Below are positions 5,313-36,732 of a stretch of DNA of 64,000 bases, piece by piece; positions within the stretch are counted from its first letter, which is position 1; the number at the start of each line of letters is the position of its first letter. A model generated the notes under the pieces. That model did no database searches. It worked only from the letters and a program-made list of their open reading frames with translations, and had not been told where the DNA came from. The stretch comes from Actinomycetes bacterium. GTDB taxonomy: Bacteria > Actinomycetota > Thermoleophilia > Gaiellales > F1-60-MAGs149. Location of the stretch: the NCBI GenBank assembly GCA_025360225.1, contig JANYCN010000034.1:34063-98062 (forward strand), read 5' to 3'. Both the position numbers and the translations under genes were made by a program.

Positions 5313-6673
5313 CAGCCGGCCTTTCGCAGGCGTGAGCGCCACGTTGCGAACGTCGCCGCGACGTGCTCAACGTGCGCTTCCCCGATCCCCGGGAAGCACC
5401 CGATCCAGAGGCTGTTCTCGGCAATCTGGTCGGTCGTGTCGAGCCGGCCAACAACGCGGTGAACGCATTCCCGGTAGGCGGGCTGGCGTAGGAGGTTTCC
5501 GGCGAAGATCTGCCGCGTTGCGATGCCGGCTCCTTCGAGGTGACGGACGAGGTCGCGGCGACTCAGACCGGCCTCGGCACGGAGCGTGAGCGCGAAGCCG
5601 AACCAGCTCGGGTCGCTTCCCGCCGTCGCCTCGGGCAGCACGAGGACGTCGGCGTAGGACGCGAGCGCCGTGGAAAGCCGTGCGTGGTTGGCCCGACGGG
5701 CGGCGACGAACTGGGGGAGCCGTTCGAGCTGGACGCGGCCGATCGCCGCCTGCAGGTCGGTCGCCTTCAGGTTGTAGCCAACGTGGGAGTAGACGTACTT
5801 GTGGTCATACCCGGCAGGGAGCGTGCCGAGCTGCTGGTCAAACCGTTTCCCGCAGGTGTTCTCGCAACCAGGCTCACACCAGCAGTCCCGGCCCCAGTCG
5901 CGGATCGACTCGACGATGCGCTTCAGCGCCGGGCGTCGGGTCAGGACCGCACCGCCCTCGCCCGTGGTGATCTGGTGCGCCGGGTAGAAGCTAAGCGTCG
6001 CGAGCGCACCGAACGTGCCAACCTGGCGTCCGTCAAACGTCGCACCGAGAGCGTCACAGCAATCCTCGACGAGGTAGAGGTCGTGCCGCTCGCAGAAGGC
6101 AGAGATCGCTGCGAGGTCGAACGGGTTGCCGAGCGTGTGTGCGAGCACGACCGCCCGCGTCCGCGCCGAGCGAGCCGCCTCGAGCCGTGCAACGTCGATG
6201 TTGTAGGTCGGCAGCGTGACGTCGACGAACACCGGCACGAGGCCGTTCTGCAGGAGCGGGGCGACGGTCGTCGGAAAGCCGGCGGCGACGGTGATCACCT
6301 CGTCACCGGCGACGAGGCGTCGATCCGCGAGCAGCGGCGAGCAGAGCGCGGAGACGGCAGCAAGGTTGGCGCTCGACCCCGAGTTCACCATCAGGGCGTG
6401 GCGTTGCCCCGTCGCACGGGCCAGCGCGCGCTCGAAAGCGCGCGTCTCCGGTCCGGCCGTGAGCCAGAAGTCGAGCGATGCGCGCACCGCCGCGACCACC
6501 TCGGCAGCGCCGTAGACACGACCGGAGACCGGCACCGACGGTGCGGCCGGGTTGAACGACGCCGCCTCGCAGCGTGCGTCAACGAGGTCGGCGACCTGCG
6601 CCAGCAGTGCATCGCGGGGCTCCACGCGTTCGCTATCGGCAGGCAGACGACCATCCTTGAAAGCGGTCCTCAT
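5312..6673 (-). CDS. rfbH: CDP-4-keto-6-deoxy-D-glucose 3-dehydrase (E1, RfbH/DdhC-like), PMP-dependent
   Basis: It has the DegT fold and the motif [14 protein letters not shown], with His replacing the Schiff-base Lys. It also has the Cys-rich [16 protein letters not shown] segment expected for the E1 Fe-S site. I chose the ATG at 6673, 15 nt after the upstream stop. Confidence 0.85.
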
Positions 6674-6687: not shown

Positions 6688-8025
6688 CTACGCCGCGCGC
6701 TCCGTGGCCGGAAGGCGGTGCCATCGTGCAGGATCGATCGGTTGATCGAGCGGGTCGGGCGCCGCATAGGGATACACCGGGTAGCCGAGATCCTCGATTC
6801 GTCGCCCCTCGTCGCTGCCGAATCGCGTCAGGAGCAGAGATCCTGGCGTAAGCACCGCCTCCGGTCGGGTGCCGCAGAGGAGATCGCAGTCAAGATCGGG
6901 AGCCGGCTCGAAGGCTGGTCCGATCGTCTCGAGCACGACGTTCGCGTCCTCGTTCTCGCTGACGACGGCGATCCTTCCCGCCCCGGCGCGCTTCAGCGCC
7001 TGAAGCGTCTCGACGAGCGACACGGCCTCCTCGCTCGTCGTCGGCGTCGTCGCGATGACGGTGAACGGGCGCGCGAGGCCCGGCAGGTCGGCATCGCTCA
7101 GGGTGATCCTCACGACGTCGCGAACCTCCTCGCTCTCGGGACAGTGCAGGAGGGCGCTGATCGCCGCGGCGTAGCCCGAGTGCCCGGTGACCGCCGCCCG
7201 GCGGTGCCCGTCGGTGAGGAGCCGGGCCCGGACGCTCAGCGCGACCCGCGCCTCGAGCCGCGCGGCCGCTTCACGCACGGCGTCGGGCATGGCAGCGTCG
7301 CGGGTGATCGAGCGGATCGCCGCTGGTAGCTGGCTCGCGTAGACGGCGGTGCGGCGCGAGTCAGACGTGCCGGAAGAGGCGTGGAAACGAAGCCGTACGA
7401 GCGGCTCAGCGAGCGAGACGACGCCGTAGCGCGCCGCGAGCCGCACCCAGAGGTGCCAGTCGCCGCAGAACGTCAGGCGCGCATCAAACCCGCCGACGGC
7501 GAGGAGCGCCGCTCGTCGAGCGACGACGCTTGGCAGCGACGCCTCGTTGTCGGGCAACAAGCGGGGGACGAACGCGCCGGCAGGGAGGTATCGCGGCACC
7601 TCAGCGAGCCCGAGCGGCCACTGGCCGAGCACGTTGTCGGCGTCATCGATGAGCGTGCAGGTGGAGTGTGCGAAAGCGGCGTCGGTCGTGGCGAGCGCGT
7701 CGACCTTGCGCGCCAGGTTCCCCGGCTCCATCACGTCATCGTCGGTGAAGAACGCGACCCACGGCGCTCGCGACTCGGCGATTCCCCGGTTCATCGAGCC
7801 GTAGACGTGCAGGTCGTGCTCGTTGCGGGTGTACCGGACACGACGGTCTCGCGCGGCGTACGCGGTGACGATCGCCGCCGTCTCGTCCGTCGACCCGTTG
7901 TCGTACACGGCAAGCTCGAGCGACACGCCCTTCTGTGCAAGGATCGAGTCGATCGACGAGCCGAGGTATCGCTCGCCGTTCTTCACGGGCAGGATCACGG
8001 TCAGCTGCGGCTCGTTGTCCTGCAC
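6688..8025 (-). CDS. Family 2 glycosyltransferase with a C-terminal extension of unknown function
   Basis: [24 protein letters not shown]...[12 protein letters not shown]...FFTDDDV is the GT-A fold with its DxD motif. The start is the GTG at 8025. Confidence 0.85.
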
Positions 8026-8032
8026 GAACGGT

Positions 8033-8061
8033 GTATCGACCGCTCACGCGCCTTCCTCAAG
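8033..8061 (-). promoter_or_regulatory. Sigma-28-like promoter (copy D) for the GT2-rfbH-rfbG operon
   Basis: On the minus strand the sequence reads CTTGAG-N15-GTCGATAC, then 7 nt, then the GTG at 8025. The -35 hexamer is the reverse complement of the -35 of copy A. Confidence 0.55.
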
Positions 8062-8084
8062 CCAGCTTCAAGCGTTGCCGATAC
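8056..8084 (+). promoter_or_regulatory. Sigma-28-like promoter (copy A) for the ThDP enzyme-rfbF operon
   Basis: CTCAAG (8056-8061), then N15, then GCCGATAC (8077-8084). The ATG at 8095 follows 10 nt downstream. Confidence 0.6.
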
Positions 8085-8094
8085 CACGGAGAAG

Positions 8095-9813
8095 ATGGCA
8101 ACCCTGGCTGACTGGCTCGGCTCGTTCCTGTTCGAGCAGGGCGTTCGCCGCGTCTATCACGTGCCGGGCGGGATGATCGCGTTGCTCATCGACGCGCTCG
8201 CGCAAACGCCTGGGATCGAGGTGATCACGACCCGCCACGAACAGGGCGCGGCGTTCGCGGCCGAGGGCGAGGCGCGGCTCACGGGCATCCCGGGCGTCGC
8301 CCTCGCGACCTCGGGTCCCGGCGCGACGAACCTCCTCACAGGGATCGGCTCGTGCTACTTCGACTCGATTCCCGCGGTCTTCATCACAGGCCAGGTGAAA
8401 CGCTCCGAGCAGCGGGGGACGCGAGCGGTCAGGCAGGTCGGCTTTCAGGAGACCGATATCGTCGTGATGGCGGCGCCGGTGACGAAGGCGGCGATCGCGA
8501 TCCGGACGATCGAGGAGGCTGCGGGCGTCTTCGAGGACGCGTTCCGCATCGCGCTCAGCGGCCGGCCGGGGCCTGTTCTCGTTGACGTTCCGCTCGACCT
8601 GCAGCGCGCGGAGGTGAGACGCCGCCCGCGCCTCGTCGCGGGACAGCCTCCCGTTGCGGCGTCCGAAGCCGACGTGAAGCGCGCCGCTCGTCGTCTGCTC
8701 GCGGCGGAACGGCCGCTGCTCCTCGCGGGCGGCGGTGTCTGGCACGCCGACGCCCAGCAGGCGCTGGTGCGGGTGGCCACGCTCGCCGACACGCCGATCG
8801 TGCACAGCTTGATGGCGACCGACGTCGTGCCCGCCGGCCACCGTCACCGCTGCGGGATGATCGGCACGTACGGCAACCGTTGGGCGAACCTCGCGCTCGG
8901 GCGCAGCGACCACCTGCTCGTCGTCGGCAGCCGACTCGACATCCGACAGACAGGTGCTGACGTTGCGTGGTTCTGTCACGATCGCACGGTCGATCGAGTG
9001 GACTGTGACGAGGCCGAGCTCGCCGAGCCGGCGGCTACGGAGGCGATCCGCGGAGACGCGCGGCTGTTCCTGTCGGCGCTCGCCGACGAGCTGCTCCAGC
9101 TCGAGCCACCGCCTGCGCGTAACGCGTGGCTCGACGAGATCGGCGACCTGCGCACCGCGTGGCCAGACGTCGACGAGGTCGGTGACGTCGGGAACATCAA
9201 CCCGAACGCGTTCGTCGCGGAGCTGACGGCGGGCGCCGCGAGCGTCAGCGCCATCGTCACCGATGTCGGCCAGCACCAGATGTGGCTCGCACAGTCCGTC
9301 CGTCCGCGTTCTGGTCAACGGGTGATCACGCCCGGGGGCATGGCCGCAATCGGCTTCGGGCTGCCGGCAGCGATCGGCGTCTCGCTCGCCGACCGGTCGA
9401 GCCGCGTGCTTCTCGTCACCGGCGACGGCGGGCTCCAGACGAACCTGCAGGAGCTCGAGACGCTCGTGCACCTGAACCTCGACGTGACCATCGTCGTCCT
9501 TGACAATCGCTGTCACGGGATGGTGCGGCAGTTCCAGACAAGCTACCTCGACGGCAGGCACGTCGGGACGCGCGACGGCTACAGCGCGCCAGACTTCCTG
9601 CGCGTCGCAACGGCCTTCGGCATCCCGTCGCTTGGGATCGCCGAGCCGGCGGAGGTCGGCTCGGGGGTCGACTTCGCGCTCGACGGGTCGGGCCCACGGC
9701 TCCTCGTCGTCGCCGTCGATCCGGACTGCGACGTCTACCCGAAGGTCGCCTTCGGGCGCCCGCTGACCGAGATGGAACCGTTCGTTCGACCCGTTGCCTT
9801 GGAGGGAACGTGA
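8095..9813 (+). CDS. Thiamine-diphosphate-dependent enzyme of the acetolactate-synthase fold; YerE-like candidate for branched-chain sugar synthesis
   Basis: MATLADWLGSFLFEQGVRRVYHVPGGMIALLIDAL...TRHEQGAAFAAEGEARLTG...ATSGPGATNLLTG and the later GDGGLQTNLQELET motif mark a ThDP enzyme. Length is 572 aa. It has a GTGA overlap with rfbF. I saw no ALS small subunit. Confidence 0.8.
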   Translation: MATLADWLGSFLFEQGVRRVYHVPGGMIALLIDALAQTPGIEVITTRHEQGAAFAAEGEARLTGIPGVALATSGPGATNLLTGIGSCYFDSIPAVFITGQVKRSEQRGTRAVRQVGFQETDIVVMAAPVTKAAIAIRTIEEAAGVFEDAFRIALSGRPGPVLVDVPLDLQRAEVRRRPRLVAGQPPVAASEADVKRAARRLLAAERPLLLAGGGVWHADAQQALVRVATLADTPIVHSLMATDVVPAGHRHRCGMIGTYGNRWANLALGRSDHLLVVGSRLDIRQTGADVAWFCHDRTVDRVDCDEAELAEPAATEAIRGDARLFLSALADELLQLEPPPARNAWLDEIGDLRTAWPDVDEVGDVGNINPNAFVAELTAGAASVSAIVTDVGQHQMWLAQSVRPRSGQRVITPGGMAAIGFGLPAAIGVSLADRSSRVLLVTGDGGLQTNLQELETLVHLNLDVTIVVLDNRCHGMVRQFQTSYLDGRHVGTRDGYSAPDFLRVATAFGIPSLGIAEPAEVGSGVDFALDGSGPRLLVVAVDPDCDVYPKVAFGRPLTEMEPFVRPVALEGT

Positions 9814-10623: not shown

Positions 10624-12003
10624 TCAGGCAGCGAGCGCAGCGAGGTACCGCGGCGCGACGGCGTCCCACGAGTACTCCGCGCGGTAGCGCGCGCGTCCTG
10701 CCACACCGAGCTGCTGGCGAACGGCGCCGTCCGCAAGGAGCGCGGCGATCGCCTCGCCGAGGCCGCTGTTCGGCACGATCAGGCCGCCGGCCAGGTCAGG
10801 AGCGGAGCCGCACGTCTCGGACGCGATCCAGGGAAGGCCGTGGCTCATCGCCTCGAGCAGCACGAGCGGCGTTGCCTCGGCGATCGACGGCAACACGAGG
10901 ACGTCCGCTTCCCGCATCGACCCGGCGACCTCCTCCCGCGTCCGTCCACCGAGCAGCGACACGCGCGCGTCGCTGGACGCCGCGGCGATGATCGCGTGCG
11001 CGAGATCGCGGTGCCCCGGAGCCGGGCCGCCGATGCAGACGAGGCGCGCGTTCGACGGCGCGGCGCGGAAGGCCTCGAGGAGACCGAGATGGTTCTTCTC
11101 GGGCCAGAAGTTCGCGACGTGCAGGACGAGCGGCGTCGCCAGATCAACCTCAATCGCGTCTCGAAGACCAGGCGTCGGGTCGATCACCGGAACCGCGTTC
11201 GGCAGGTACGTCCCCGGCACCCCGAGATGATCGAGCAGTCGCCGATCCCAGCCTGCGTACGAGCTGAACCCGACCGCGTCGACCCGCAGGAGCGCCCTGC
11301 TGTAGGCCTCCGCCTGGTCAGCGCGTGCCCGGACGAGCCGGTCACCATCCTCGTTCACGCACGGCACCACGAGCGAGCGGATGCGCTGCAGGGGGTGGGG
11401 AAGGCCAAGCACCGAGCGGATCGGGTAGCCGCCCGGCGAGGAGATGCCGATCACGGCACCGAAACGGCCGGACGCGAGGAGCGCGTGCAGGGCTTCCTCG
11501 GCGAGTGCCGGCGCCGTGCCGTGGACGGTGATGCCACGCCACCCCGCAACGCGGTCCCGGTGCTCGTAGCAGAGCACCTCGGTCGGTCGGCCGCGTGCGG
11601 TCAGCTCGAACGCGAGGTCGGCAGCGAGCATCTCGGTGCCGCCGACGGACGGGTGGAACAGCTCGACGACGAGCAGGATCCGGTCGCTGACCATCCGCTC
11701 GTCGCCGCCGTAGGCGAGCGCCTCGCCGCAGACGTCGAGCGCCTGGCGCGCCTCGACGAGGTCGGGAGCGACAGCGACGGCGTGTCGTGCGTAGGCGTAG
11801 GCGTCGGCGACCTCGCCCGCATCGTGGAGGACGACCGCGATGTCGGCGAGCGCCTCCGCCCACAGCCGCGTACCGGCGCCGGCGGCGCGTCGGACGGACT
11901 CCAGCGCGCTGTAGGCACCCGTCGCGTCGCCGTCAGCGAACTGCCCCTCCGCCGCCTCGAGCAGGTGGCGGAGATGCTCCTCGTCCGGCGCGTCGGCGAT
12001 CAT
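10624..12003 (-). CDS. TPR-like N-terminal region fused to a GT4 (GT-B) glycosyltransferase
   Basis: ILLVVELFHPSVGGTEMLA...EATPLVLLEAMSHGLPWIAS are GT4 motifs. The start is uncertain (ATG 12003, ATG 12009 or TTG 12063). I chose 12003 because it lies 8 nt after the -10 block of promoter copy C. Confidence 0.75.
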   Translation of the reverse strand: MIADAPDEEHLRHLLEAAEGQFADGDATGAYSALESVRRAAGAGTRLWAEALADIAVVLHDAGEVADAYAYARHAVAVAPDLVEARQALDVCGEALAYGGDERMVSDRILLVVELFHPSVGGTEMLAADLAFELTARGRPTEVLCYEHRDRVAGWRGITVHGTAPALAEEALHALLASGRFGAVIGISSPGGYPIRSVLGLPHPLQRIRSLVVPCVNEDGDRLVRARADQAEAYSRALLRVDAVGFSSYAGWDRRLLDHLGVPGTYLPNAVPVIDPTPGLRDAIEVDLATPLVLHVANFWPEKNHLGLLEAFRAAPSNARLVCIGGPAPGHRDLAHAIIAAASSDARVSLLGGRTREEVAGSMREADVLVLPSIAEATPLVLLEAMSHGLPWIASETCGSAPDLAGGLIVPNSGLGEAIAALLADGAVRQQLGVAGRARYRAEYSWDAVAPRYLAALAA

Positions 12004-12011
12004 CTGCATCG

Positions 12012-12040
12012 GTATCGACGCGCACGTCTGACCACTTGAG
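12012..12040 (-). promoter_or_regulatory. Sigma-28-like promoter (copy C)
   Basis: On the minus strand the sequence reads CTCAAG-N15-GTCGATAC. ATG codons follow 2 nt and 8 nt downstream. Confidence 0.6.
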
Positions 12041-12058
12041 GAGGTTGCCCGTACCACC

Positions 12059-12087
12059 CTCAAGTGGTATCGCGACTCCGTCGATAC
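12059..12087 (+). promoter_or_regulatory. Sigma-28-like promoter (copy B) for the 14-kb plus-strand glycosyltransferase/flagellar gene string
   Basis: CTCAAG-N15-GTCGATAC, then 7 nt, then the GTG at 12095. It is an exact mirror image of copy C. Confidence 0.6.
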
Positions 12088-12094
12088 CGACGAA

Positions 12095-14764
12095 GTGTCG
12101 GCAACCTCGCCACGGGTGACGCTCGCGATCGCAACCCACGACCGTCCAGCGTACCTCGCTGAGGCGCTCGCCAGCGCGTACGCGCAGGACTACGCCGACC
12201 TGGAGATCCTCGTCGTTGACGACGCCTCGGGGCCGGAGACCGTGGCGCTCCTCGACGCCCAGAGCGACCCGCGCCTGCGCGTCCTGCGCCTCGACGAGAA
12301 CGTCGGCATGGTCGGCGCGTTCAACCGGCTCTGGCAGGAAGCACGCGGTGAGCTGGTCGCGATCCTCGACGACGACGACGTCTGCGTGCCGGATCGCGTC
12401 AGCCGCTCGGTCGCCGTCTTCGACCGGCACCCCGGTACGCACGTCGCCTTCGGCGACTCGATCACGATCGACGCGAACGGTCTACCGATCGGCGAGTGGA
12501 CGGTCGGGCACCTCGCCGGCGAGCGGCTCCTTGACGTCCTCGTACGGCGCGTCAACATGATCTGCCACACGACCGTGATGGTCCGTCGCAGCCTGTACGC
12601 GACGCTCGGCGGCTACGACGTCGACCTCCCTGTCGCGCAGGACTACGAGCTGTGGCTCCGAGCCCTGCCCGATCACGAGTTCCGGACGATCCCGGGTGGG
12701 CCGGTGGTGCGCGTTCGCCGACACGGGGCGAACTCGACCACGGCGGCGATGCCTGAGCGAGAGCAGGCGTACGTCGAGCTCAGCATCCGAAAGGCGCTGG
12801 GGTACAGGACGCTGCGCGAGCTCGTCCCGGAGATCGCCTGGGACGCCATCCCGGAGGCGTGGGCCGAGCGGCACGCGCGGATCGTGCTCGCAGCGGCGTT
12901 CGCGCGCCGCGGGCTCACCGCGCTCGCCGCCGAGCAGCTCGAAGGCGCCGACGCGGGCCCGCAGACCTTCGACGCGGCGGCCCGTGCCGACCCGACGTTC
13001 GCGGAGCCGGGCTCGCGCGGCTCGATCGTCCTCACCTCGTTCGGCTGGAACGATGCCGGGGGCGGCACGCGGGTGCCGCGAAACGTCGCACGCGCGCTCG
13101 TCCGTCGTGGGTACGCCGTGACGGTGTTCTACGCCGGCGTCGCTGAGCGTCCCGGGTTGACGCCGTACGCGGTCGAGGAGACGAGCGAGGACGGGATTGA
13201 CCTCGTCGGCGTGTTCAACCGACCACACGGCCTGCTCGACCTCGGCCACCCGCTTCGCGAGATCGACGACCCACCGATCGCGCGAGCCTTCGGCGAGCTG
13301 CTCGATCGGGTAAGGCCCAACGTGATCCACTACCACAACCTCCACAACCTCGGAGCGTCGCTCGTCGACGAGTCGCGATCACGGGGTATCCCAGCCGTCT
13401 TCTCGACGCACAACTACTGGCTCGTCTGTCCGCGCAACTACCTCTTCCGCGCCGACCTCTCGCTCTGCGACGGCCCGGCGGACGAGGGTCGGGCGTGTGC
13501 GTCGTGCGTCGACGCACCGCACCTGAGCGACGGCTACGCGGCCCGACGCAGCGGTGTTCGCGACCGGTTTTCGGCCGGCGTCGAGACCTGCCTCGCCGTC
13601 TCTGAGACGGTCGCTCACACGCTGCTCGACACCGGCTTCGACGATCGGCTCGTGCAGGTCCTGGCACAGGCGATGCCCGAGCCGGAAGGGCTCTGGCGCG
13701 CCGTCGGCGAGGCGCGACCGGCAGGCCGCCGCGGGCGCGACCTCGTCGTCGGCTTCCTCGGCTCGGCGTACCCACACAAGGGGCCCCAGGTGCTCGTCCT
13801 GGCAGCGCAGGCGATGCCCACGGACGTGCGCGTCGAGGTCCACGGCGACGTGCCGCAGCGCACGATCGGCGCCCTTCAGGCGCTTGACCGGCTCGGTCGC
13901 GTCGAGTTCGCCGGCCCGTACTCCGAGCACGACCTGCCGGCGATCCTCTCACGGATCGACGTGGCGGTCGTCCCCTCGGTCTGGTGGGACTGTGCACCGC
14001 TCGTCGTCGCCGAGTGCCTCGCCGCCGGCGTGCCGGTCGTCGGCGCGCGGATGGGCGGGATCGCCGAGGCGATCGACGATGACGTCGATGGGCTCCTCGT
14101 CGCCGGCGGCGACCCGGGCGCGCTCGCAGGGGCGATCACCCGTCTGACGACCGAGCAAGGGCTGCTCGAACGTCTCCAGGCCGGCATCAAGGCACCCGCG
14201 TCGTTCGCCCGCTACGTCGACGCGCTCGAGAGCGCGTACGCAGGCACCTATCGACGAGCGGTCGGAACGCTCACCACCGAGAGCGGCGTGGGACTTCCCC
14301 AGCGCCCCCGACCGGAGCGGGAAGTCCCGCACGCTGCGGAGAAGCTGGTGCGCTTCACGACCCGGACGAGGGCGCTCGTCGCGGCGCCCTGCTGGGGCGA
14401 CCCGGACGGTCTCGAAGCGATCCTCGCGTGCTGGGCGTCGGCGTTCACCGAGGCCGACGACGTCGCCCTCGTGCTGCTCGCCGACACGCACGTCGACGGC
14501 CGCAGCGACGAGCTCGCGGGACGGATCGATGAGGCGGCGCGGGCGCGCGGGATCGACCTCGACGGTGACCTCGCGGAGCTCGTGCTCGTCGATGACGCCA
14601 GCGCCGGCCGCGCCCTCGCGCACGCAGCGGCGGGCGATGGCTACCTGTGCCTGCACCGCGGCGCGCCTGGCCTCGAGCGCGCAGCGGTGCGCGCCGGAGT
14701 GCCGTTGCTCGAGCTCGACGTTGCAGCGTTTCGCGGCTGGTCGACGGGGCGGATCGCCGCGTGA
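12095..14764 (+). CDS. Three-module glycosyltransferase: GT2, GT4 and a C-terminal half-Rossmann module
   Basis: The N-terminus VTLAIATHDRPAYLAEAL...VVDDASGPET...ILDDDDV is GT2. The middle region IVLTSFGWNDAGGGTRVPRNVARAL...APLVVAECLAAGVPVVGARMGG is GT4. The C-terminal ~130 aa (LVAAPCWGDPDGLEAILACWASAFTEADDVALVLLAD) recurs in the next two GT4 proteins. Confidence 0.85.
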   Translation: MSATSPRVTLAIATHDRPAYLAEALASAYAQDYADLEILVVDDASGPETVALLDAQSDPRLRVLRLDENVGMVGAFNRLWQEARGELVAILDDDDVCVPDRVSRSVAVFDRHPGTHVAFGDSITIDANGLPIGEWTVGHLAGERLLDVLVRRVNMICHTTVMVRRSLYATLGGYDVDLPVAQDYELWLRALPDHEFRTIPGGPVVRVRRHGANSTTAAMPEREQAYVELSIRKALGYRTLRELVPEIAWDAIPEAWAERHARIVLAAAFARRGLTALAAEQLEGADAGPQTFDAAARADPTFAEPGSRGSIVLTSFGWNDAGGGTRVPRNVARALVRRGYAVTVFYAGVAERPGLTPYAVEETSEDGIDLVGVFNRPHGLLDLGHPLREIDDPPIARAFGELLDRVRPNVIHYHNLHNLGASLVDESRSRGIPAVFSTHNYWLVCPRNYLFRADLSLCDGPADEGRACASCVDAPHLSDGYAARRSGVRDRFSAGVETCLAVSETVAHTLLDTGFDDRLVQVLAQAMPEPEGLWRAVGEARPAGRRGRDLVVGFLGSAYPHKGPQVLVLAAQAMPTDVRVEVHGDVPQRTIGALQALDRLGRVEFAGPYSEHDLPAILSRIDVAVVPSVWWDCAPLVVAECLAAGVPVVGARMGGIAEAIDDDVDGLLVAGGDPGALAGAITRLTTEQGLLERLQAGIKAPASFARYVDALESAYAGTYRRAVGTLTTESGVGLPQRPRPEREVPHAAEKLVRFTTRTRALVAAPCWGDPDGLEAILACWASAFTEADDVALVLLADTHVDGRSDELAGRIDEAARARGIDLDGDLAELVLVDDASAGRALAHAAAGDGYLCLHRGAPGLERAAVRAGVPLLELDVAAFRGWSTGRIAA

Positions 14765-17795: not shown

Positions 17796-20548
17796 GGGTG
17801 CTGATGACGATGTTCGGCTGGGATGACGCCGGCGGCGGCACGACGATCCCGCGCGAGACGGCGTACGAGCTCGCCCGCCGCGGCCACGACGTGACCGTCT
17901 TCTACGCCGCCACCGAGCCGCTCGCCGGGGCCGGTCGCAACGCGATCCGTGAGCGGTCGGTGGGCGGCGTCCGGCTTGTCGGCGTGCACAACCGCCGCTC
18001 AGTGCTGCTCGACATCGGCCACCCGAGACGGGAGATCGAGGACCCGGAGATCACCGCTGCGTTCGGGTCGCTGCTCGACGAGGTGCGCCCTGACGAGGTG
18101 CTCTTCCACAACCTCCACAACCTCGGCGTCGCCCTCACCGGCGAGACCGCTGCGCGCGGGATCCGTGCGACGTTCACGCCGCACAACTTCTGGCTCCTCT
18201 GCTCACGCAACCACCTGTTGCGACCCGGACCCGCGCTCTGCGACGGGCCTGCTGATCGCGGCGCGGTCTGCGCGTCGTGCACCGGCAGCGGTGCGGTGAT
18301 CGACCACGAGGGCCGCACCAGCGAGCTCCGCGAGCAGGTCTCGCTGAACGTCGAGACGATCACCTGCGTCTCCGCCACCGTGCGCGACGTCCTCGAAGGC
18401 GCGGGCTTTCCCGCGGCGATGCTGGACGTCGCGCCGGTCGCGCCGCCGACGGCTGCGAGCATCTGGGAGGCCGTCGGCAGGGACCGTACCCCGTCGCGGT
18501 CGACGCCCCTGCGGGTGGGGTTCATCGGCTCGTTGCAATCGTTCAAGGGCGCCGCCGTCCTCGCCGCCGCGGCGTCGCTCGCCCGGGCGGAGGTTCTCGT
18601 CGATATCCACGGCGCCGGCGACGAGGAGGCGAGAAGGGCGATCCTTCGCGAGGGCGAGGGGCGCGTGCGGCTCGCCGGCGCCTACAGGACCGCAGACCTG
18701 CCGCAGATCCTCGCGAGCATCGACGTGGCCGTCGTCCCCTCGCTGGTCTGGGAGACCGCTGGCCTGACCGTGCTCGAGTGCCTTGCTGCGCGCGTGCCGG
18801 TGATCGTGCCGCGGCTCGGTGGTCTCGTCGAGTCGATCACGGACGGCGTCAACGGCCTCGTCTGCGAGGCATGGAGCGCTCCCGCGATCGCGGCGGCGCT
18901 CGACCGGCTCGCGGCCGAGCCAGGCCTCCTCGAACACCTGCAGGCGAGCATCGAGGCGCCGCGGACGTTCACGGCGTACGTTGACGACGTCGAGCGGCGT
19001 TGGCGGGATGGTGCGCCAGCGATCCGGACGCGGAACGAGCTGGCCGTTGCGTGGAAGGGCGATCAGCTGCGTCTCTCGAGCCTTGCGGCGGTGAACCGGG
19101 CGGTGTGTGACGGCCTCGAGCGGATCGCCGGGATCCGCCTCGCTCGGCGGGCCAACGACGACCCGACGGCACGTGCGCCGCTGCCACACCCAGCCCACGT
19201 CGAGGTACGACACCAGTGGCCGCCAGACTTCACTGCCGTCGGCGCCGGTCGTCTCGCCCTGATCCAGCCGTGGGAGTTCGGCTCGATCCCGCTCGGCTGG
19301 CGGGACGCCATCCGCGAGTCGGTCGACGAGGTGTGGGTGCCGAGCGAGCACGTGCGGCGCATGTACGTCGACGACGGCATCGACGCGGACCGTGTTCACG
19401 TGGTTGGAAACGGCGTCGACCTCACGCTCCTGACGCCCGAAGGCCCCCAGCATCCGCTGCTGCCGACTCGCGGCGTACGGTTCCTCTACGTCGGCGGCAC
19501 GATCTACCGCAAGGGCGTTGACGTCCTCGTTGAGGCGTTCAAGGAGGCGTTCGGTGGCGGCGACGCGGCGACCCTCGTCGTCAAGGACGTCGGCGCGGCG
19601 TCGTTCTACCAGGGGATGTCGGCCGGGGAGAACATCCGCCAGACGCCCGGGTTGCTGTACGTCGACGACGACCTGACGGACGAGCAGATGGCGGCGCTGT
19701 ACCGCAGCTGCGACGTCCTGGTGCACCCCTACCGCGGCGAGGGCTTCGCGATGCCGGTGCTCGAGGCGATGGCGTGTGGCCTGCCGGTGATCGTCAGCGC
19801 CGGCGGCCCGACGGACGAGTTCTGTCCCGCGGAGGCGTGCTGGCGGATCGTGACGACGCGCCGGGCGGTCCCGCAGGGACGGATCGGGATGGAGACGGTG
19901 CAGGAACCGTGGATGCTCGAGCCCGACGCCGACGATCTCGTCCGGCTGTTCCGCGCCGTTGCCGATGACCCGGCGGAGCGTGCGCGGCGCGGCGCTGCTG
20001 GTCGGGCGGCCGCGCTGGAGCATGGCTGGCAGGCGATCGCGGACCGCTATGCCGAGCGCCTTCACGCTCTCGCTCGGCGGCCGCCGCTCGTGCGCTCGCG
20101 GCCGGTCGAGCCGTTCCCGCTGCCGGGCGCCCGAGCGCGGAACGTGCTCGCCACCCCGGCCTGGCTGGGCGACGATCGCCTCCCCGAGCTCCTGCGCGCG
20201 TGGTCGGAGGCGTTCGACGTGAACGACGATGTCGCTCTGTTCCTGCTCGCCGACCCGCGCCGCGACGGCGACGCTGACCGCTGGGAGAGGCACGTGATGG
20301 CGGCAATCGACGAGGCGGGCGTCGATCCCGACCGGCTCGCCGACATCGCGGTGCTCGATCACCCGTGCCAGGGGGACGACGCCCGGCGCATCCACGACGC
20401 CTGCGACGCCTTCGTTCCCCTGCACGCCGCGTGCGCCGGACACGCACGGCTCGCACGCCTCGTCATCGAACCAGACGCACGTACGCTCAAGCTCGTGCCC
20501 GTACGCGCCGAAAACGATACCGATACCGTGGTGAAGGTGAGGATCTGA
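17792..20548 (+). CDS. Double GT4 glycosyltransferase plus a C-terminal half-Rossmann module (paralog 3)
   Basis: GTGA overlap at 17792-17795. The first GT4 has VLMTMFGWDDAGGGTTIPRETAYEL. The second GT-B domain has FLYVGGTIYRKGVDVLVEAF...HPYRGEGFAMPVLEAMACGLPVIVS. The tail is VLATPAWLGDDRLPELLRAWSEAFDVNDDVALFLLAD. Confidence 0.85.
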   Translation: MRVLMTMFGWDDAGGGTTIPRETAYELARRGHDVTVFYAATEPLAGAGRNAIRERSVGGVRLVGVHNRRSVLLDIGHPRREIEDPEITAAFGSLLDEVRPDEVLFHNLHNLGVALTGETAARGIRATFTPHNFWLLCSRNHLLRPGPALCDGPADRGAVCASCTGSGAVIDHEGRTSELREQVSLNVETITCVSATVRDVLEGAGFPAAMLDVAPVAPPTAASIWEAVGRDRTPSRSTPLRVGFIGSLQSFKGAAVLAAAASLARAEVLVDIHGAGDEEARRAILREGEGRVRLAGAYRTADLPQILASIDVAVVPSLVWETAGLTVLECLAARVPVIVPRLGGLVESITDGVNGLVCEAWSAPAIAAALDRLAAEPGLLEHLQASIEAPRTFTAYVDDVERRWRDGAPAIRTRNELAVAWKGDQLRLSSLAAVNRAVCDGLERIAGIRLARRANDDPTARAPLPHPAHVEVRHQWPPDFTAVGAGRLALIQPWEFGSIPLGWRDAIRESVDEVWVPSEHVRRMYVDDGIDADRVHVVGNGVDLTLLTPEGPQHPLLPTRGVRFLYVGGTIYRKGVDVLVEAFKEAFGGGDAATLVVKDVGAASFYQGMSAGENIRQTPGLLYVDDDLTDEQMAALYRSCDVLVHPYRGEGFAMPVLEAMACGLPVIVSAGGPTDEFCPAEACWRIVTTRRAVPQGRIGMETVQEPWMLEPDADDLVRLFRAVADDPAERARRGAAGRAAALEHGWQAIADRYAERLHALARRPPLVRSRPVEPFPLPGARARNVLATPAWLGDDRLPELLRAWSEAFDVNDDVALFLLADPRRDGDADRWERHVMAAIDEAGVDPDRLADIAVLDHPCQGDDARRIHDACDAFVPLHAACAGHARLARLVIEPDARTLKLVPVRAENDTDTVVKVRI
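20486..20514 (+). promoter_or_regulatory. Sigma-28-like internal promoter (copy E) inside the 3' end of the preceding gene
   Basis: CTCAAG-N15-GCCGAAAA, ending 35 nt before the GTG at 20550. AAGGTGAGGA lies between and could act as a Shine-Dalgarno sequence. Confidence 0.5.
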
Positions 20549-20549
20549 C

Positions 20550-23066
20550 GTGGCGCTGAAGATCGTTCGGGCATCCCAGGACGAGCGCCTGCAGACGCCG
20601 CTGCGCGCCTGGTACGGCGGCCAGCACGACGAGGCCATCACCCTGCTCGCGTCGCCCGAGGGCGGCCGTTTCGCGGACGACGCGACGCAGGTCGTCGCGG
20701 CAGCGCTCGCCACCGAACCGGAGCGCGTCGCGGCGATCGGCACGGCCCTGACGCGCTGGACCGACGAGTCGGCCGCCTACCGGATCCTCCGCCGCAGCGC
20801 CGAGAGCCTGATCGACGAGACGGCCGCGATCTCGCCCGCGCGCTGGGCGCCCCGCGGGATGACGCTGCTTGCCCTGACACGTCCGTGGCTCGACGTCCAT
20901 CCAGCCGAGCCGGTCCTGCTCAACTACGTCGGTGTCACGCTGTACGGGTTGAACGAGCCGTCCCTCGCGCTCGGCCTCTTGCAGGCTGCGCAGGCGATCG
21001 ACCCGACGGTCGAGAACATCGCCGGCAACCTGGCCGCCGTTCGCCACCGGGTGCGACACCCTGTCGTCCTGCACCTCGGCCCGCGCGAGAGCGGACAGAT
21101 GAAGGCACAGCGCGCCTTCTTCAAGGCGCTCGGCGGGCGTGCCCGCGTAGCCGCCGACCCGGTTCGCCTGTCGCTCTGCATGATCGTCCGCGACGAGGAG
21201 GAGATGCTCCCCGAGTGCCTGGCGTCGTGCGCCGCAGGGGTTGACGAGATCGTCATCGTCGACACCGGATCGACCGATCGAACCGTCGAGATCGCCGAGT
21301 CGTTCGGCGCCACGGTGCTGCACTTCCCGTGGAACGGCTCATTCTCCGATGCCCGTAACCACGGCATCGCTGCGGCAACGGGCACCCACATCCTCTGGCT
21401 CGACGCCGACGAGCGGCTCGAGGACGGCGACGCGGAGAACCTGCACGCGGTCGCCGGCGAGCCGTACCGCGAGGCGCACTGGCTCGTCGAGACGAACTTC
21501 ACCGGTCAGGAGGAGGTCGGAACCGCGGCCACCCACCTCGCCCTGCGGATCTGGAAGAACCGGCCGCAGTACCGTTTCACCGGTGCGATCCACGAGCAGA
21601 TCCGCGTCTCGATGCCGACCGATCTGGGAGAGCGGTTCGCCGTCTCTAGCCTCCGCATCCGCCACTACGGGTACCTGAAGAGCCGGATCGACGAGCGCGA
21701 CAAGCACCAGCGCAACCTGACGCTGCTGCTGAAGGAGCTTTTGCAGAGCCCGAACAACGCCTTCACGCACTTCAACCTCGGCACCGAGTACCTCGGCACG
21801 CAGGACCTCGACCTGGCGTCGAAGCACCTCGAGGAGGCATACCGGCTGCTGCAGCGCGACGAGGGCTGGTACGAGTACGCGTACGCGTCGCTGCTGGCGA
21901 CGCGCCTCGTGGGCATACGCCGCGTCCGCGGCGACCTTGATGGTGCCGACGTGCTCGCCTCGCAGCTCTTGCAGGCCTACCCGGCGTTCACCGACCTCGT
22001 GTTCGAGCGTGGCTTGATCGCCCGTGAGCGGGACGACAGGCACGGTGCGATCGAGCACTTCGAGACGTGCCTTGAGATGGGCGACGCACCGGCGCGGTTT
22101 GCCGGGATGGTCGGTCGTGGCACGTTCCTCGCGCTCGCGGCGCTCGCGACGACCGCCCTCGAGATCGACGACCAGGACCGTGCGATCGGCTACCTCGAGC
22201 GGTCGCTGGACGAGCACCCGTCCTACCTCCCGGCAGGCCTCGACCTGACGGACGCGCTCCTCGTCGCTCCGGGCTGCGATCCGGCCGCCGTCCTCGCCCG
22301 CATGGAGGCAACGGGCAACGACGTCGCGACCTGGTGGCTGTTCCTCGGCACCGCGTTCTACGAGCGTGGCCACTCGCTGATCGCCGAGTCCCTGTTTCGT
22401 CGAGCGCTCGCGAAGGCGCCGACGAACCCGGCCGCGAGCATCGGCCTCGTCGAGACGCTGCTCACCCAGCACCGTTACGCCGAGGCAGCCGCCGGAGCAC
22501 CGGATCTGCCGGTCGGCACGCCGTTCTTCCTCGCCGTCGAGCGCGCGCGGATCCTCGCCCTCTCGCTCGCCAACGAGGCGACCGCCGCGACCGCCGCGGC
22601 CGAGCGGTTCGCCGCGGGCGGCGCCGACCCAGCGGAGGCGGCGTTCCTCGTCCACCTCGCACCGGCGATCGCTGGGATGGAGGACGGCGTCGCGCTGCCC
22701 GCTTCGTCGGCGCCATTCGCGCTTCGCATGCTCGACTCGCTCGCACGTCTCGAGGAGTACGACGCGTTCGGGCGGCTCGTCCCGCTCGTCACCGGCGCGA
22801 TCGGCAACGGTCGTGTGGCGGCGCTGTCGCTCGCCGAGCTGTACCTCGCGCGCGGCTTCTACCAGCTCGCGGGTGAGCAGGCGATCGCCGCGATCGAGAT
22901 CGGCGGGCCCGAGGCGCGCGCGCTCGCCGTCCTCGGCAAGGCGGCGGTTGCCGAAGGACTGTTCGACGACGCGTTGCCGGTGCTCGAGGCCTCGCTCGAG
23001 CTCGATCCGTCGCAGGTGCCGGTGCGCACCCTGCTCGACACGCTACGCACCCGCGTCGCGGCGTAA
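20550..23066 (+). CDS. TPR-GT2-TPR protein (FlmG-like architecture); candidate protein glycosyltransferase
   Basis: The central LSLCMIVRDEEEMLPECLASC...IVIVDTGSTDRT...LWLDADERLE is a GT2 domain. It is flanked by TPR-like helical repeats (FNLGTEYLGTQDLDLASKHLEEAY, GLDLTDAL...FLGTAFYERGH...). Confidence 0.8.
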   Translation: MALKIVRASQDERLQTPLRAWYGGQHDEAITLLASPEGGRFADDATQVVAAALATEPERVAAIGTALTRWTDESAAYRILRRSAESLIDETAAISPARWAPRGMTLLALTRPWLDVHPAEPVLLNYVGVTLYGLNEPSLALGLLQAAQAIDPTVENIAGNLAAVRHRVRHPVVLHLGPRESGQMKAQRAFFKALGGRARVAADPVRLSLCMIVRDEEEMLPECLASCAAGVDEIVIVDTGSTDRTVEIAESFGATVLHFPWNGSFSDARNHGIAAATGTHILWLDADERLEDGDAENLHAVAGEPYREAHWLVETNFTGQEEVGTAATHLALRIWKNRPQYRFTGAIHEQIRVSMPTDLGERFAVSSLRIRHYGYLKSRIDERDKHQRNLTLLLKELLQSPNNAFTHFNLGTEYLGTQDLDLASKHLEEAYRLLQRDEGWYEYAYASLLATRLVGIRRVRGDLDGADVLASQLLQAYPAFTDLVFERGLIARERDDRHGAIEHFETCLEMGDAPARFAGMVGRGTFLALAALATTALEIDDQDRAIGYLERSLDEHPSYLPAGLDLTDALLVAPGCDPAAVLARMEATGNDVATWWLFLGTAFYERGHSLIAESLFRRALAKAPTNPAASIGLVETLLTQHRYAEAAAGAPDLPVGTPFFLAVERARILALSLANEATAATAAAERFAAGGADPAEAAFLVHLAPAIAGMEDGVALPASSAPFALRMLDSLARLEEYDAFGRLVPLVTGAIGNGRVAALSLAELYLARGFYQLAGEQAIAAIEIGGPEARALAVLGKAAVAEGLFDDALPVLEASLELDPSQVPVRTLLDTLRTRVAA

Positions 23067-23188: not shown

Positions 23189-23503
23189 GTGCAAGCACAG
23201 CGCGCGACAGATGTCAGCGAGTTCCCCGACCGCATCACGCCGATCGAGCGCGTGCACGCGGCAGCACAGGTGCACGCGGCGACGCAGGCCCATGCGGGGT
23301 TCTCCGTCGTCGTGGCGGACGCGACGCCGAGCCGGACGTTCGAGGTCCGCTACGGCCTCGATCCGATCGCCAACGTGTGGGTGGCGAGCTTCTTCGACGG
23401 CGCCACCGGCGAGCTCGTGAAGACGGTGCCCTCGACGAAGGTCATGCACCAGCTGGCAGAGCTGCGGGCGATCCACGAGCGCTCCGTCGATCACCACGCC
23501 TGA
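23189..23503 (+). CDS. flaG: FlaG-like flagellar protein
   Basis: GTG start preceded by AAGGAGG. The C-terminal FEVRYGLDPIANVWVASFFDGATGELVKTVPSTKVMHQLAEL resembles the FlaG family core. Length is 104 aa. Confidence 0.7.
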   Translation: MQAQRATDVSEFPDRITPIERVHAAAQVHAATQAHAGFSVVVADATPSRTFEVRYGLDPIANVWVASFFDGATGELVKTVPSTKVMHQLAELRAIHERSVDHHA

Positions 23504-23552: not shown

Positions 23553-23581
23553 CTTCACCGATGGGGGTTGCACGCCGATAG
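23553..23581 (+). promoter_or_regulatory. Weaker sigma-28-like element (copy G) upstream of fliS
   Basis: CTTCAC-N15-GCCGATAG, ending 47 nt before the GTG at 23629. The -10 half and the spacing are good but the -35 half is poor. Confidence 0.35.
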
Positions 23582-23628: not shown

Positions 23629-24000
23629 GTGGCAACGGGCTACCAGGCGTACCAGACGAACGCGATCCAGACCGCTCCGCCAGAGCAGCTCGTCGTGATG
23701 CTCTACGACGGCTGTCTGCGGTTCCTTCGTCGCGCCGAGAGCGCCGCGAAGACCGGTACCCGGCCCCAGGTGACCGAGGCCGTCGCACGCGCGACGGCGA
23801 TCATCATGGAGCTCAACGCCACGCTCGACATGGAGCGTGGGGGAGAGATCGCGTCGAACCTGCGCTCGCTGTACTTCTTCCTGCACCGGCACCTGCTCGA
23901 GGCGTCCCGCGAGGGTTCGCCGGAGCAGATTCGCCAGGCGATCGGGCTGATCGGAGACCTGCGCGACGCCTTCGCGGAGGCGGCGAAGAAGGTCGCGTGA
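23629..24000 (+). CDS. fliS: Flagellar export chaperone FliS
   Basis: YQAYQTNAIQTAPPEQLVVMLYDGCLRFLRRA...ATAIIMELNATLDMERGGEIASNLRSLYFFLHRHLLEA is canonical FliS. The GTG at 23629 is preceded by GGAGGA. Confidence 0.9.
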   Translation: MATGYQAYQTNAIQTAPPEQLVVMLYDGCLRFLRRAESAAKTGTRPQVTEAVARATAIIMELNATLDMERGGEIASNLRSLYFFLHRHLLEASREGSPEQIRQAIGLIGDLRDAFAEAAKKVA

Positions 24001-24326
24001 TCGGCAGCGACGTCGAGAGGGTGCTGCGAACGGTCGTCGAGCTGACCGAGCTCGAGTCGGCGCTGATCGCCGAGCGCGACGCGGCGGCCCTGACGATGCT
24101 CGGCGATGAACGCGAGGCGCTCCTCCGTGAGCTTCCCGACGCCCTCCCCGAGCGCTGCGCACCCCTCGTCGAGCGCTTCAGGCGCGCTCGCGACGCGAAC
24201 CTGATCGCTGCCACGGCGGCGGCGGCGGCGATCCGCTCCCAGCTCGGCACGACCCACCAACGACGCAAGGCGATCGGCGGTTACGCCTCCGACGCCCGTG
24301 AGCGTCCGGAGCGCGGGGTCGCCTGA
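23997..24326 (+). CDS. Small helical protein, possibly an FlgN/FliT-like flagellar chaperone
   Basis: GTGA overlap with fliS and TGATG overlap with fliD. The sequence VVELTELESALIAERDAAALTMLGDEREALLREL is weakly FlgN-like. Length is 109 aa. Confidence 0.45.
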   Translation: MIGSDVERVLRTVVELTELESALIAERDAAALTMLGDEREALLRELPDALPERCAPLVERFRRARDANLIAATAAAAAIRSQLGTTHQRRKAIGGYASDARERPERGVA

Positions 24327-29307: not shown

Positions 29308-29688
29308 CGGCTCCCGGTGACGGTGACGCCGCGCGGCGTCGCGAGCCGCACGCAGCCGATCGCCGTCGAGGATGTGATCGGGTATCTCGTCGCTGCACTC
29401 GATCACCCCGCGTCGCCAGGCGGAGTCGTCTTCGAGATCGGCTGCCGGGACGTCGTCACCTACCGCGACCTGATCGGGGAGTGCGCCGTCGTCGAGCGCT
29501 TCGAGATCGGGCACGTCAAGCGCCTGCTCCAGCTCGAGCTCACGGCCGGCACCGTTGGCTCCGTGATTGCCCCGACCGCATTCCTCGAGCCAGCCGGGCT
29601 CGCCGGCCTTGCCTACCGGTACGCGACCTGGCCGATCCACGACCGGATCTTCCGGGGGATGGCGCGCGCGATCGGCCGACATGCGGAA
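29308..29688 (+). pseudogene. 3' remnant of an SDR / DUF2867-type NAD(P)-binding protein
   Basis: VTVTPRGVASRTQPIAVEDVIGYLVAALDHPASPGGVVFEIGCRDVVTYRDLI ... AYRYATWPIHDRIFRGMARAIGRHA matches only the C-terminal part of that family. There is no Rossmann N-terminus. The upstream part of the ORF overlaps the 925-aa gene. Confidence 0.45.
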
Positions 29689-29758
29689 GCGGGTGGAGGG
29701 AATCGAACCCTCGTCTGAGGCTTGGAAGGCCGCCGCTCTACCATTGAGCTACACCCGC
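29688..29758 (-). tRNA. tRNA-Gly (anticodon UCC)
   Basis: The reverse complement GCGGGTGTAGCTCAATGGTAGAGCGGCGGCCTTCCAAGCCTCAGACGAGGGTTCGATTCCCTCCACCCGCT folds as a cloverleaf. The anticodon loop is CTTCCAA and the T-loop is TTCGATT. There is one C-U mismatch in the anticodon stem. CCA is not encoded. Confidence 0.9.
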
Positions 29759-29775
29759 CCGCTGCTCGGAGGATA

Positions 29776-29804
29776 CTCAAGCCGGCGGCCGCAGCGTCCG
29801 ATGC
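29776..29804 (+). promoter_or_regulatory. Sigma-28-like promoter (copy F) for the PilZ gene
   Basis: CTCAAG-N15-TCCGATGC, then 7 nt, then the GTG at 29812. This is the same geometry as copies B and D. Confidence 0.5.
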
Positions 29805-29811
29805 CCTGAGG

Positions 29812-30426
29812 GTGGGGCAGACCGCACCAGACGACCGGCTCCTGTTCGCCCACGCGCTCGACGCCGGCCACGAGCTGACCGTCGCGCGTGCCGACGGGCC
29901 GCTCGTCGACACGACGGTGATGGCGGTGACGGGCGTCGACCTTGACCTACGAGCCGCGCCCGGGGCGTTGCCTGAGGGAACGCTTGCCACGGCGCGACTG
30001 CACGACGGCTCTTCAGCGTGGTTCGCGACGTTGATGGTGCTCTCGGTCGACGGAACGCTGGTGCGTGCCCGCATCGGTGACGCCGTGCCGGTGACGTCGG
30101 AGCGCTGGGCCGAGCGCGTCGACCTTCCCGGGCCGGCGGTCGTTCGTCCAGAGTCCGGCGCGACGGCGATCGTCCGCGCCGAGTCGGTGAACATCAGCCT
30201 GACCGGGATCGCGCTTGCCGTGAACGGCGCGGCGCCGGCGGCGGGAACGAGCGTCGGCGTCGTGCTGGCGGGCGACGGTGACGGCTCGATCGCCTGCCGC
30301 GCTCGCGTGCAGCGGCGCACGGCGACGCCCGGTGGTGCGTTGCTCGCGCTCGAGATCATCGGGATCTCTCGCGAGGATCATCGGCGGCTCGCCCAGGCGA
30401 TCGATCGCCGGCTTCAAAGCTGCTGA
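29812..30426 (+). CDS. PilZ-domain protein (candidate c-di-GMP receptor, YcgR-like)
   Basis: The C-terminal half has RWAER (RxxxR) followed 24 aa later by NISLTG ((D/N)xSxxG). The longer ORF start at 29722 would overlap tRNA-Gly. The GTG at 29812 is in frame and matches the promoter geometry. Confidence 0.7.
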   Translation: MGQTAPDDRLLFAHALDAGHELTVARADGPLVDTTVMAVTGVDLDLRAAPGALPEGTLATARLHDGSSAWFATLMVLSVDGTLVRARIGDAVPVTSERWAERVDLPGPAVVRPESGATAIVRAESVNISLTGIALAVNGAAPAAGTSVGVVLAGDGDGSIACRARVQRRTATPGGALLALEIIGISREDHRRLAQAIDRRLQSC

Positions 30427-36165: not shown

Positions 36166-36168
36166 GGC

Positions 36169-36678: not shown

Positions 36679-36698
36679 GCTCGTTCAGGTTCTCGCGG

Positions 36699-36732
36699 CT
36701 CCCCCGTCCGGCGCATCGTCCGGACGGGGGAG
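36699..36732 (-). promoter_or_regulatory. Perfect 13-bp GC-rich intercistronic stem-loop
   Basis: CTCCCCCGTCCGG (36699-36711) pairs with CCGGACGGGGGAG (36720-36732), leaving an 8-nt loop. It lies between the stop at 36743 and the ATG at 36678. No U-tract follows. Confidence 0.6.

Follow-up and report, generated by a model that had tools for sequence, protein, structure and literature searches.

Two glycosyltransferase genes that point away from each other are separated by a gap carrying two inverted repeats, one nested inside the other, which raises the question of whether this symmetry marks a dedicated regulatory device or something more ordinary. An earlier note on this DNA had described both repeats as perfect and as sharing one symmetry centre at 12049/12050 of the window (the whole 64-kb stretch analysed here), and the sequence agrees. 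The features of the locus are given below, with predicted promoter elements placed on the repeat arms that contain them.

10624–12003, minus strand: GT4-family glycosyltransferase gene (Pfam Glycos_transf_1 and Glyco_trans_1_4)
12009–12020: left outer perfect arm, TCGGTATCGACG, 12 nt, pairing with 12079–12090
12012–12019, minus strand: predicted -10 box of the leftward promoter, GTCGATAC on the minus strand; core of the left outer arm
12031–12041: left inner perfect arm, ACCACTTGAGG, from reading of the sequence
12035–12040, minus strand: predicted -35 box of the leftward promoter, CTCAAG on the minus strand; core of the left inner arm, from sequence and orthologs
12047–12054: conserved central block, CCCGTACC, 4 nt upstream of the right -35 box
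12058–12068: right inner perfect arm, CCTCAAGTGGT, from reading of the sequence
12059–12064, plus strand: predicted -35 box of the rightward promoter, CTCAAG; core of the right inner arm
12079–12090: right outer perfect arm, CGTCGATACCGA, 12 nt
12080–12087, plus strand: predicted -10 box of the rightward promoter, GTCGATAC; core of the right outer arm
12095–14764, plus strand: GT2+GT4 fusion glycosyltransferase gene with a GTG start (Pfam)

Read through from 12009 to 12090, the sequence is TCGGTATCGACG-cgcacgtctg-ACCACTTGAGG-aggttgcccgtaccac-CCTCAAGTGGT-atcgcgactc-CGTCGATACCGA, and both perfect arm pairs are concentric on 12049/12050. The outer arms had been reported as 10 nt long (GGTATCGACG at 12011–12020 and CGTCGATACC at 12079–12088); they were correctly placed, but the perfect arm actually extends over 12 nt. 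As had also been noted, the segments between the arms are asymmetric: these 10-nt segments show no complementarity, and a repeat search found the whole 38-nt arms to be 74% complementary. The reported gap length of 85 nt holds if the left gene starts at ATG 12009, but we argue below that ATG 12003 is the real start.

The GC content of the window is 70%, and lone perfect inverted repeats of at least 10 nt are common there, with 40 centres (arms at most 50 nt from the centre) in the window versus 25 ± 4.6 in dinucleotide shuffles. The position 12049/12050 is the sole centre in 64 kb with two separate perfect arms, an arrangement that appeared in none of 30 shuffles. Likewise, the composite CTCAAG-N13-17-GTCGATA occurs twice in the window against an expectation of 0.00. 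The nested repeat is real and goes beyond chance. A further 9-nt perfect inverted repeat, GAGGTTGCC / GGCAACCTC (12041–12049 and 12100–12108), joins the centre of the gap with codons 2–5 of the right-hand gene; this one is probably a chance match, because its upstream arm would not be transcribed.

Two outward-facing promoter motifs and their conservation in relatives

Each half of the repeat, read outward, consists of CTCAAG-N15-GTCGATAC. The earlier note had taken the inner arms as the -35 and the outer arms as the -10 elements of two outward promoters, a reading that gained ground from two sides: the boxes are kept in five orthologous loci while the spacers diverge, and the -35/-10 composite also occurs singly and directionally before other genes. 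We consider it likely, on the strength of these sequence patterns, that 12009–12090 represents two independent, non-overlapping, divergent promoters of the flagellar sigma-28-family type (FliA/SigD/WhiG).

We compared the window with a near-identical contig (L005), with L003 and L004 at 71% amino-acid identity, with L008, L012, L013 and L014 at about 52–54% identity, and with L009 and L006. The named homologues of the right-hand gene belong to Gaiellales, Solirubrobacteraceae and Baekduia MAGs and so assign the window to the class Thermoleophilia. A divergent gap is found at the equivalent place in L004, L008, L012, L013 and L014, all of them Thermoleophilia metagenomes, and both promoters are kept in all five. 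On the right side, these orthologs read CTCAAG-N15-G(T/C)CGAT(A/G)(C/G)-N7-GTG; the -35 hexamer CTCAAG is invariant in 6/6 orthologous gaps, and the -10 box is GTCGATAG, GCCGATGC or GCCGATGG in the orthologs, at the same 15-nt spacing. On the left side, they read CT(C/A)AAG or TTCAAG, N15, (G/C/T)(T/C)CGAT(A/G)C, N6–7, and GTG or ATG, the hexamer being CTCAAG, TTCAAG or CTAAAG. The spacing between -35 and -10 boxes is identical in all 11 ortholog promoters. In a six-way alignment, the spacers vary, and the invariant columns fall in the two -35 hexamers, in CGAT of each -10 box, in the GTG start codon and in TAC of the central block. Boxes that are kept while spacers diverge are the footprint of two promoters.

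The partners of the gap are less constant on the left. In both the window and L004, the left-hand gene encodes a GT4 protein of 461 aa. L008 and L012 instead carry a GT2/GT1 fusion of ~900 aa at this place, and the protein found there in L013 and L014, ~488 aa long, is unannotated. A scan of the genome collection for the left GT4 protein yielded only L001, a non-syntenic relative at 44%, and one unrelated Clostridia locus; the N-terminal 300 aa of the right-hand protein, run against metagenomes, yielded only GT2 relatives at 25–29%.

Comparison of the orthologous gaps, the check that the earlier note had proposed, gave a divided answer: the -35/-10 boxes are conserved, but neither the arms beyond the consensus nor the distance between the two promoters is. 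Measured from -35 to -35, L012 has 16 nt, the window and L004 have 18 nt, and L008, L013 and L014 have 26 nt. Among the distant relatives at ~53% identity (L008 and L012–L014), arm agreement is confined to promoter-consensus positions, and the boxes of the two sides are not the same (CTAAAG versus CTCAAG; CCCGATGC versus GCCGATGC or GCCGATGG). The extended perfect symmetry is therefore lineage-specific.

Such symmetry could have arisen by a recent inverted duplication or gene conversion of a single promoter, with no selection on the symmetry itself. The differing left-hand genes imply that a rearrangement on the left side did occur, and the left and right promoters are far more alike in the window and L004 than in other lineages. 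Nevertheless, a recent duplication would have copied the spacer too, and the middle 10–11 nt of the two spacers match at ~3/11 positions, no better than chance, while the blocks of 11 and 12 nt beside them are perfect. This contrast argues for selection on the elements, and we regard a recent duplication as doubtful, if well worth keeping in mind. It bears on origin only and is compatible with promoter function, and an old duplication or conversion could still underlie the pair.

The earlier note had further suggested that a cruciform or RNA hairpin might coordinate both operons; formed by the repeat, such a structure would couple or terminate transcription. Folded as single-stranded DNA, 12004–12095 does reach -26.7 kcal/mol (z = -5.8 versus shuffles). 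This fold is not conserved, however, as the orthologous gap of L008 shows nothing unusual (z = -0.37). Moreover, the flanking genes point outward and their predicted starts lie outside the arms, so that neither predicted transcript contains both arms. A terminator scan found no terminator-like site in the gap, and the gap matched no Rfam family at E ≤ 1. A 16-nt central loop and interrupted arms would also be expected to make cruciform extrusion unfavourable. We thus consider a role of the repeat as a cruciform or hairpin hardly credible.

A subtler alternative accepts the promoters as real but proposes that the extended symmetry (ACCACTTGAGG...CCTCAAGTGGT, possibly with the GTAC block) doubles as an operator for a dimeric regulator of both. 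In the window and in L004, CTCAAGTGGT is identical at both promoters, and its TGGT part, an extension after the -35 box, is absent from the other promoters of the same type in the window. Between the promoters, the block (G/C)(T/C)C(G/A)TAC(C/G) is present in 6/6 orthologs, its last base lying 3 nt before CTCAAG in 5/6, and in L012 it forms the perfect palindrome TCGTACGA. The central block may serve as an upstream element of a promoter or as the binding site of a regulator; both it and the TGGT extension go beyond what the promoter model alone explains. On the other hand, the inner arms are 27 bp apart from centre to centre, or ~2.6 helical turns, and hence lie on different faces of the helix. 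The notion of a dimer bridging the arms, as put forward in the earlier note, also sits poorly with a promoter distance of 16, 18 or 26 nt and with arms that are not conserved outside the consensus. Half-sites and spacing conserved beyond promoter needs, as expected of a palindromic operator, were not found in the orthologs, where only TGGT is shared with L004; because the spacers of the window and L004 are still ~60% identical, retention of TGGT is weak evidence of selection. Finally, single, oriented half-units at a fixed distance from start codons are unlike a palindromic operator. We hold an additional operator function to be improbable.

Returning to the two divergent promoters, we interpret the nested symmetry as a by-product of placing two like promoters head to head, because the -35-to--35 distance varies, the arms are identical only at consensus positions in distant relatives, and the hairpin potential is not conserved. 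The arrangement is tidy but ordinary and constitutes no new regulatory device. A striking nested palindrome can thus be explained without any special mechanism, which calls for caution in genome scans for symmetric sites.

One more sequence in the gap deserves mention. GGTATCG, the core of the left outer arm, has a third copy at 12066–12072, right after the right inner arm (CCTCAAGTGGTATCGCG); this copy is kept in L004, and L008 and L012 carry CGATAC in the forward sense at the equivalent place. We examined the copy as a third, minus-strand -10 box and rejected it, as it has no -35 partner at the right distance; it is probably not a promoter.

Directional single sites and the sigma-28-like consensus

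A weight matrix trained on the sites of relatives only was run over the window and returned six sites of at least 16 bits, compared with 0.25 expected; five reached at least 20 bits. These five strongest sites are the following.

6661, minus strand: before rfbH; GTG 6625, 7 nt after the box
8056, plus strand: before the TPP-enzyme operon; ATG 8095, 10 nt after the box
12040, minus strand: before the GT4 gene; ATG 12003; 22.6 bits, among the top three
12059, plus strand: before the GT2+GT4 gene; GTG 12095
29776, plus strand: before the PilZ gene; GTG 29812, 7 nt after the box

The site before the PilZ gene, CTCAAG-N15-TCCGATGC with its start codon (29776–29812), is truly intergenic, with a tRNA-Gly(TCC) at 29685–29759, and it suggests that a flagellar-brake-like protein belongs to the same regulon. 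In other Actinomycetota, WhiG is controlled by c-di-GMP via RsiG. The rfbH site (minus strand, 6633–6661) reads TTCAAG-N15-GCCGATAG and is followed, after 7 nt, by an in-frame GTG at 6625. In the near-identical deposited contig, rfbH is called from a start 63 nt farther upstream that overlaps the stop codon of the GT2 gene before it. The shorter version with its leaderless start is likely correct, because the NCBIfam RfbH alignment begins at residue 4 of the frame started at GTG 6625.

The motif also recurs before flagellar genes outside the training set. GTCAAG-N15-GCCGATA(C/G) lies between the flaG-like gene and fliS in L008 (17852), L012 (10649) and L014 (10794), where the -10 boxes are GCCGATAC or GCCGATAG. 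The fliS promoter of the window (23553–23581) is weaker at -35, reading CTTCAC-N15-GCCGATAG, and its start codon lies ~40 nt downstream, so this mRNA would not be leaderless. In a Baekduia MAG (L006), CCTCAAG-N14-GCCGATCA stands before a flagellin gene, its spacer being shorter by 1 nt. The matrix scan found no motif in the non-flagellar control loci L007, L001, L010 and L011; L007 (P0023, 50% identity) has a non-flagellar context and served as a negative control only. This directional recurrence before flagellar genes indicates that the motif marks a flagellum-linked regulon.

Two other places in the island carry related sequences. A second divergent gap, at 8025–8095, separates a GT2 gene (minus strand, GTG 8025) from the TPP-enzyme operon (plus strand, ATG 8095). 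Its plus-strand promoter reads CTCAAG (8056–8061)-N15-GCCGATAC (8077–8084). On the minus strand, GTCGATAC (8040–8033) stands 7 nt before GTG 8025, and the -35 position of this box falls on the same 6 bp as the plus-strand CTCAAG, read backwards (CTTGAG) and off consensus; it may be a promoter that lacks a -35 box, one of two overlapping promoters or a chance occurrence. At 20486–20550, CTCAAG-N15-GCCGAAAA scores 12.6 bits; it is located ~35 nt before the start of the GT2-TPR gene (GTG 20550), within the 3′ end of the glycosyltransferase gene that precedes it, and is followed by a tandem CGATACCGATACC at 20515–20527; CGTACG directly abuts its CTCAAG. This site may be a weak internal promoter.

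Which sigma factor would read the motif? According to the main text of a recent survey, the consensus of actinobacterial WhiG, a sigma-28-family factor, comprises a -35 of xT(C/A)Ax, a spacer of 16 nt and a -10 of GCCGA, in which CGA is fixed and the first two bases are variable (PMC13595943); the classic flagellar consensus is TAAA / GCCGATAA (PMC8325347). Both sides of the gap, written as CTCAA-N16-GTCGA, agree with the sigma-28/WhiG consensus of that text in -35, -10 and spacing, the mismatch at position 2 being tolerated. Measured against GCCGATAA, the -10 box GTCGATAC has T at position 2 and C at position 8, which we counted against a sigma-28 reading. The gene context agrees as well, since the same motif stands before late flagellar and motility genes (fliS, flagellin and PilZ). 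A promoter scan found no sigma-70-type promoter in the gap. Pfam detected neither a sigma-28/WhiG gene nor any other sigma factor gene in the 64-kb window, and we therefore infer the cognate factor, putatively sigma-28/WhiG, from class-level literature; WhiG homologues are reported in three Thermoleophilia species (PMC8325347).

A different alternative sigma factor, such as an ECF-type one recognising CGTC in the -10 region, is another candidate reader. Both boxes read CGTCGATAC, which contains CGTC, and CGTC is typical of many ECF -10 elements. We rejected this assignment, as the sister sites GCCGATAC, GCCGATAG, TCCGATGC and CCCGATGC are without CGTC. Furthermore, CGAT forms the invariant core, as it does in GCCGATAA, the -35 element reads CT(C/A)AAG rather than being GGAAC-like, and the target genes include flagellin (in the Baekduia MAG), fliS and PilZ. 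An ECF-type factor is thus very unlikely to be the reader.

The sigma-28-type assignment can be set beside promoters known from elsewhere. WhiG promoters have been mapped in Rubrobacter radiotolerans (PMC8325347), and in 2026 WhiG1/2 promoters were predicted inside the flagellar clusters of other Actinomycetota, as reported in the main text of that survey (PMC13595943). As far as those descriptions go, the sites studied here resemble them in the -35 element (xT(C/A)Ax or TAAA), the 15/16-nt spacing and the -10 GCCGA with its invariant CGA (PMC13595943, PMC8325347), in the presence of several sites within one flagellar region, and in having a gene for PilZ, a c-di-GMP-binding domain, among the targets. 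Unlike the WhiG consensus given there, the -10 box here ends in TAC or TGC instead of TAA; unlike the promoters described there, those of the window abut start codons, with probably leaderless mRNAs, and their targets are sugar-biosynthesis and glycosyltransferase genes. The main text of the survey names no Thermoleophilia lineage of the Gaiellales- or Solirubrobacterales-like kind (PMC13595943).

Our comparison with divergent promoters in general leads to a similar mixture of likeness and difference. Back-to-back divergent promoters in bacterial intergenic regions are a well-known general class. The present pair shares with that class two outward promoters in one ~90 bp gap, with core elements that do not overlap, and both operons would answer one signal. 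It differs in that both promoters appear to serve the same alternative sigma factor, their near-identical elements generating perfect nested inverted repeats.

Predicted leaderless starts in a glycosyltransferase island

The distance between promoter and start codon bears on how these genes would be expressed. For the left gene, ATG 12003–12001 lies 8 nt after the -10 box, and ATG 12009 only 2 nt after it. Begun at 12003, the left protein has 17 aa before a conserved LEA motif, equal to its L004 ortholog, which is begun 7 nt after its own -10 box. For the right gene, GTG 12095 lies exactly 7 nt past the -10 box, and this distance is 7 nt in 6/6 orthologs although the 7 bases themselves differ. 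Across the window and its orthologs, the start codon follows the -10 box by 6–8 nt in 12/12 promoters of the gap. An exact look-up of the 889-aa right protein found no record, as the deposited call (P0001) begins 7 codons later; independent gene calls choose the N7-GTG start in L004, L008, L012 and L013, and the next in-frame Val codon is GTC in L008 and L012–L014, which makes a later start unavailable in these four. Bacterial polymerases initiate about 7 nt past the -10 element. A start codon follows each -10 box within 6–8 nt, which leaves no space for a Shine-Dalgarno sequence; both mRNAs are therefore probably leaderless, starting at ATG 12003 leftward and at GTG 12095 rightward. Start-codon calls would likely be corrected accordingly for the left GT4 gene (12003), rfbH (6625) and the PilZ gene (29812).

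Leaderless mRNAs are well known in Actinomycetota. The predicted transcripts resemble them in having the start codon at the predicted transcription start with no space for a Shine-Dalgarno sequence, and differ in being coupled to a sigma-28-type promoter with a strict -10-to-start distance of 6–8 nt across orthologs.

The genes in question belong to a sugar-biosynthesis/glycosyltransferase island at approximately 1–23066. It comprises DegT-type aminotransferases including RfbH (662 bits), GDP-mannose-dehydratase-like enzymes, epimerases, a nucleotidyltransferase, an acetolactate-synthase-like TPP enzyme and seven glycosyltransferase genes, one of them encoding a GT2-TPR protein. Three flagellar genes, counting the flaG-like ORF, follow ~11 kb downstream of the divergent gap, and with them a PilZ-domain gene.

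23189–23503: flaG-like ORF (our own reading; no Pfam hit)
23629–24000: fliS
24326–26188: fliD (Pfam)
~29812–30426: PilZ-domain gene (Pfam)

The synteny of L008, L012 and L014 matches this order, with GT2-GT4, GT2-TPR, flaG-like, fliS, a short gene and fliD. The two short ORFs flanking fliS, at 23189–23503 and 24003–24326, have no Pfam hit and occupy the usual places of flaG and of fliT or an equivalent chaperone; their syntenic counterparts in L008, L012 and L014 are 104–122 aa and 108–109 aa long. The window contains no flagellin gene, and synteny points to flagellin as most likely the glycosylation target of the island.

Taken as a mechanism, RNA polymerase carrying a sigma-28-family factor would initiate ~7–8 nt past each -10 box. 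The initiation point would coincide with the start codon, ATG 12003 leftward and GTG 12095 rightward, giving leaderless mRNAs. Both transcripts would encode glycosyltransferases of the island adjoining the flaG-like gene, fliS and fliD, and the glycosylation genes would thereby be switched on together with the late genes of the flagellar filament. It is also conceivable, though a long shot, that the GTAC block at 12047–12054, possibly with TGGT, is a third element through which a regulator gates both leaderless glycosylation operons. If so, that regulator would be a checkpoint by which early-branching Actinomycetota link the glycosylation of flagellin with filament assembly or with c-di-GMP.

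Flagellar glycosylation under a flagellar sigma factor has precedents. In Clostridioides difficile, flagellar glycosylation genes are SigD-dependent, and Listeria GmaR is a TPR-containing GT2 flagellin glycosyltransferase. As in flagellin glycosylation islands of this kind, glycosyltransferases (including GT2-TPR) and nucleotide-sugar genes adjoin fliS/fliD under a predicted flagellar sigma factor. Unlike those islands, the pathway here looks like a CDP-3,6-dideoxyhexose or branched-sugar route (RfbH, nucleotidyltransferase, dehydratases and TPP enzyme), the host belongs to an early-branching actinobacterial class, and the flagellin substrate is putative. Three aspects are new: the lineage, the fact that such promoters are coupled to a PilZ gene and a glycosylation island, and the way in which start codons strictly abut the promoters.

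Thermoleophilia are poorly studied and known largely from metagenomes, and we found no promoter data for this class. The sites described here provide a clean promoter model of the flagellar sigma factor for it, supported by comparison among relatives, CT(C/A)AAG-N15-(G/C)(C/T)CGAT(A/G)(C/G) with the start codon 6–8 nt later, and place a large sugar/glycosyltransferase island together with a PilZ gene in a predicted late-flagellar regulon.

Farther along the window, the minus strand of 34435–51851 carries a CopC/CopD gene followed by a series of very large ORFs of 1232, 510, 691 and about 2800 aa, with weak hits to multicopper-oxidase and Ig-like domains and with persistently positive GC skew and negative AT skew. 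This region looks like an unusual cluster of copper-related surface proteins.
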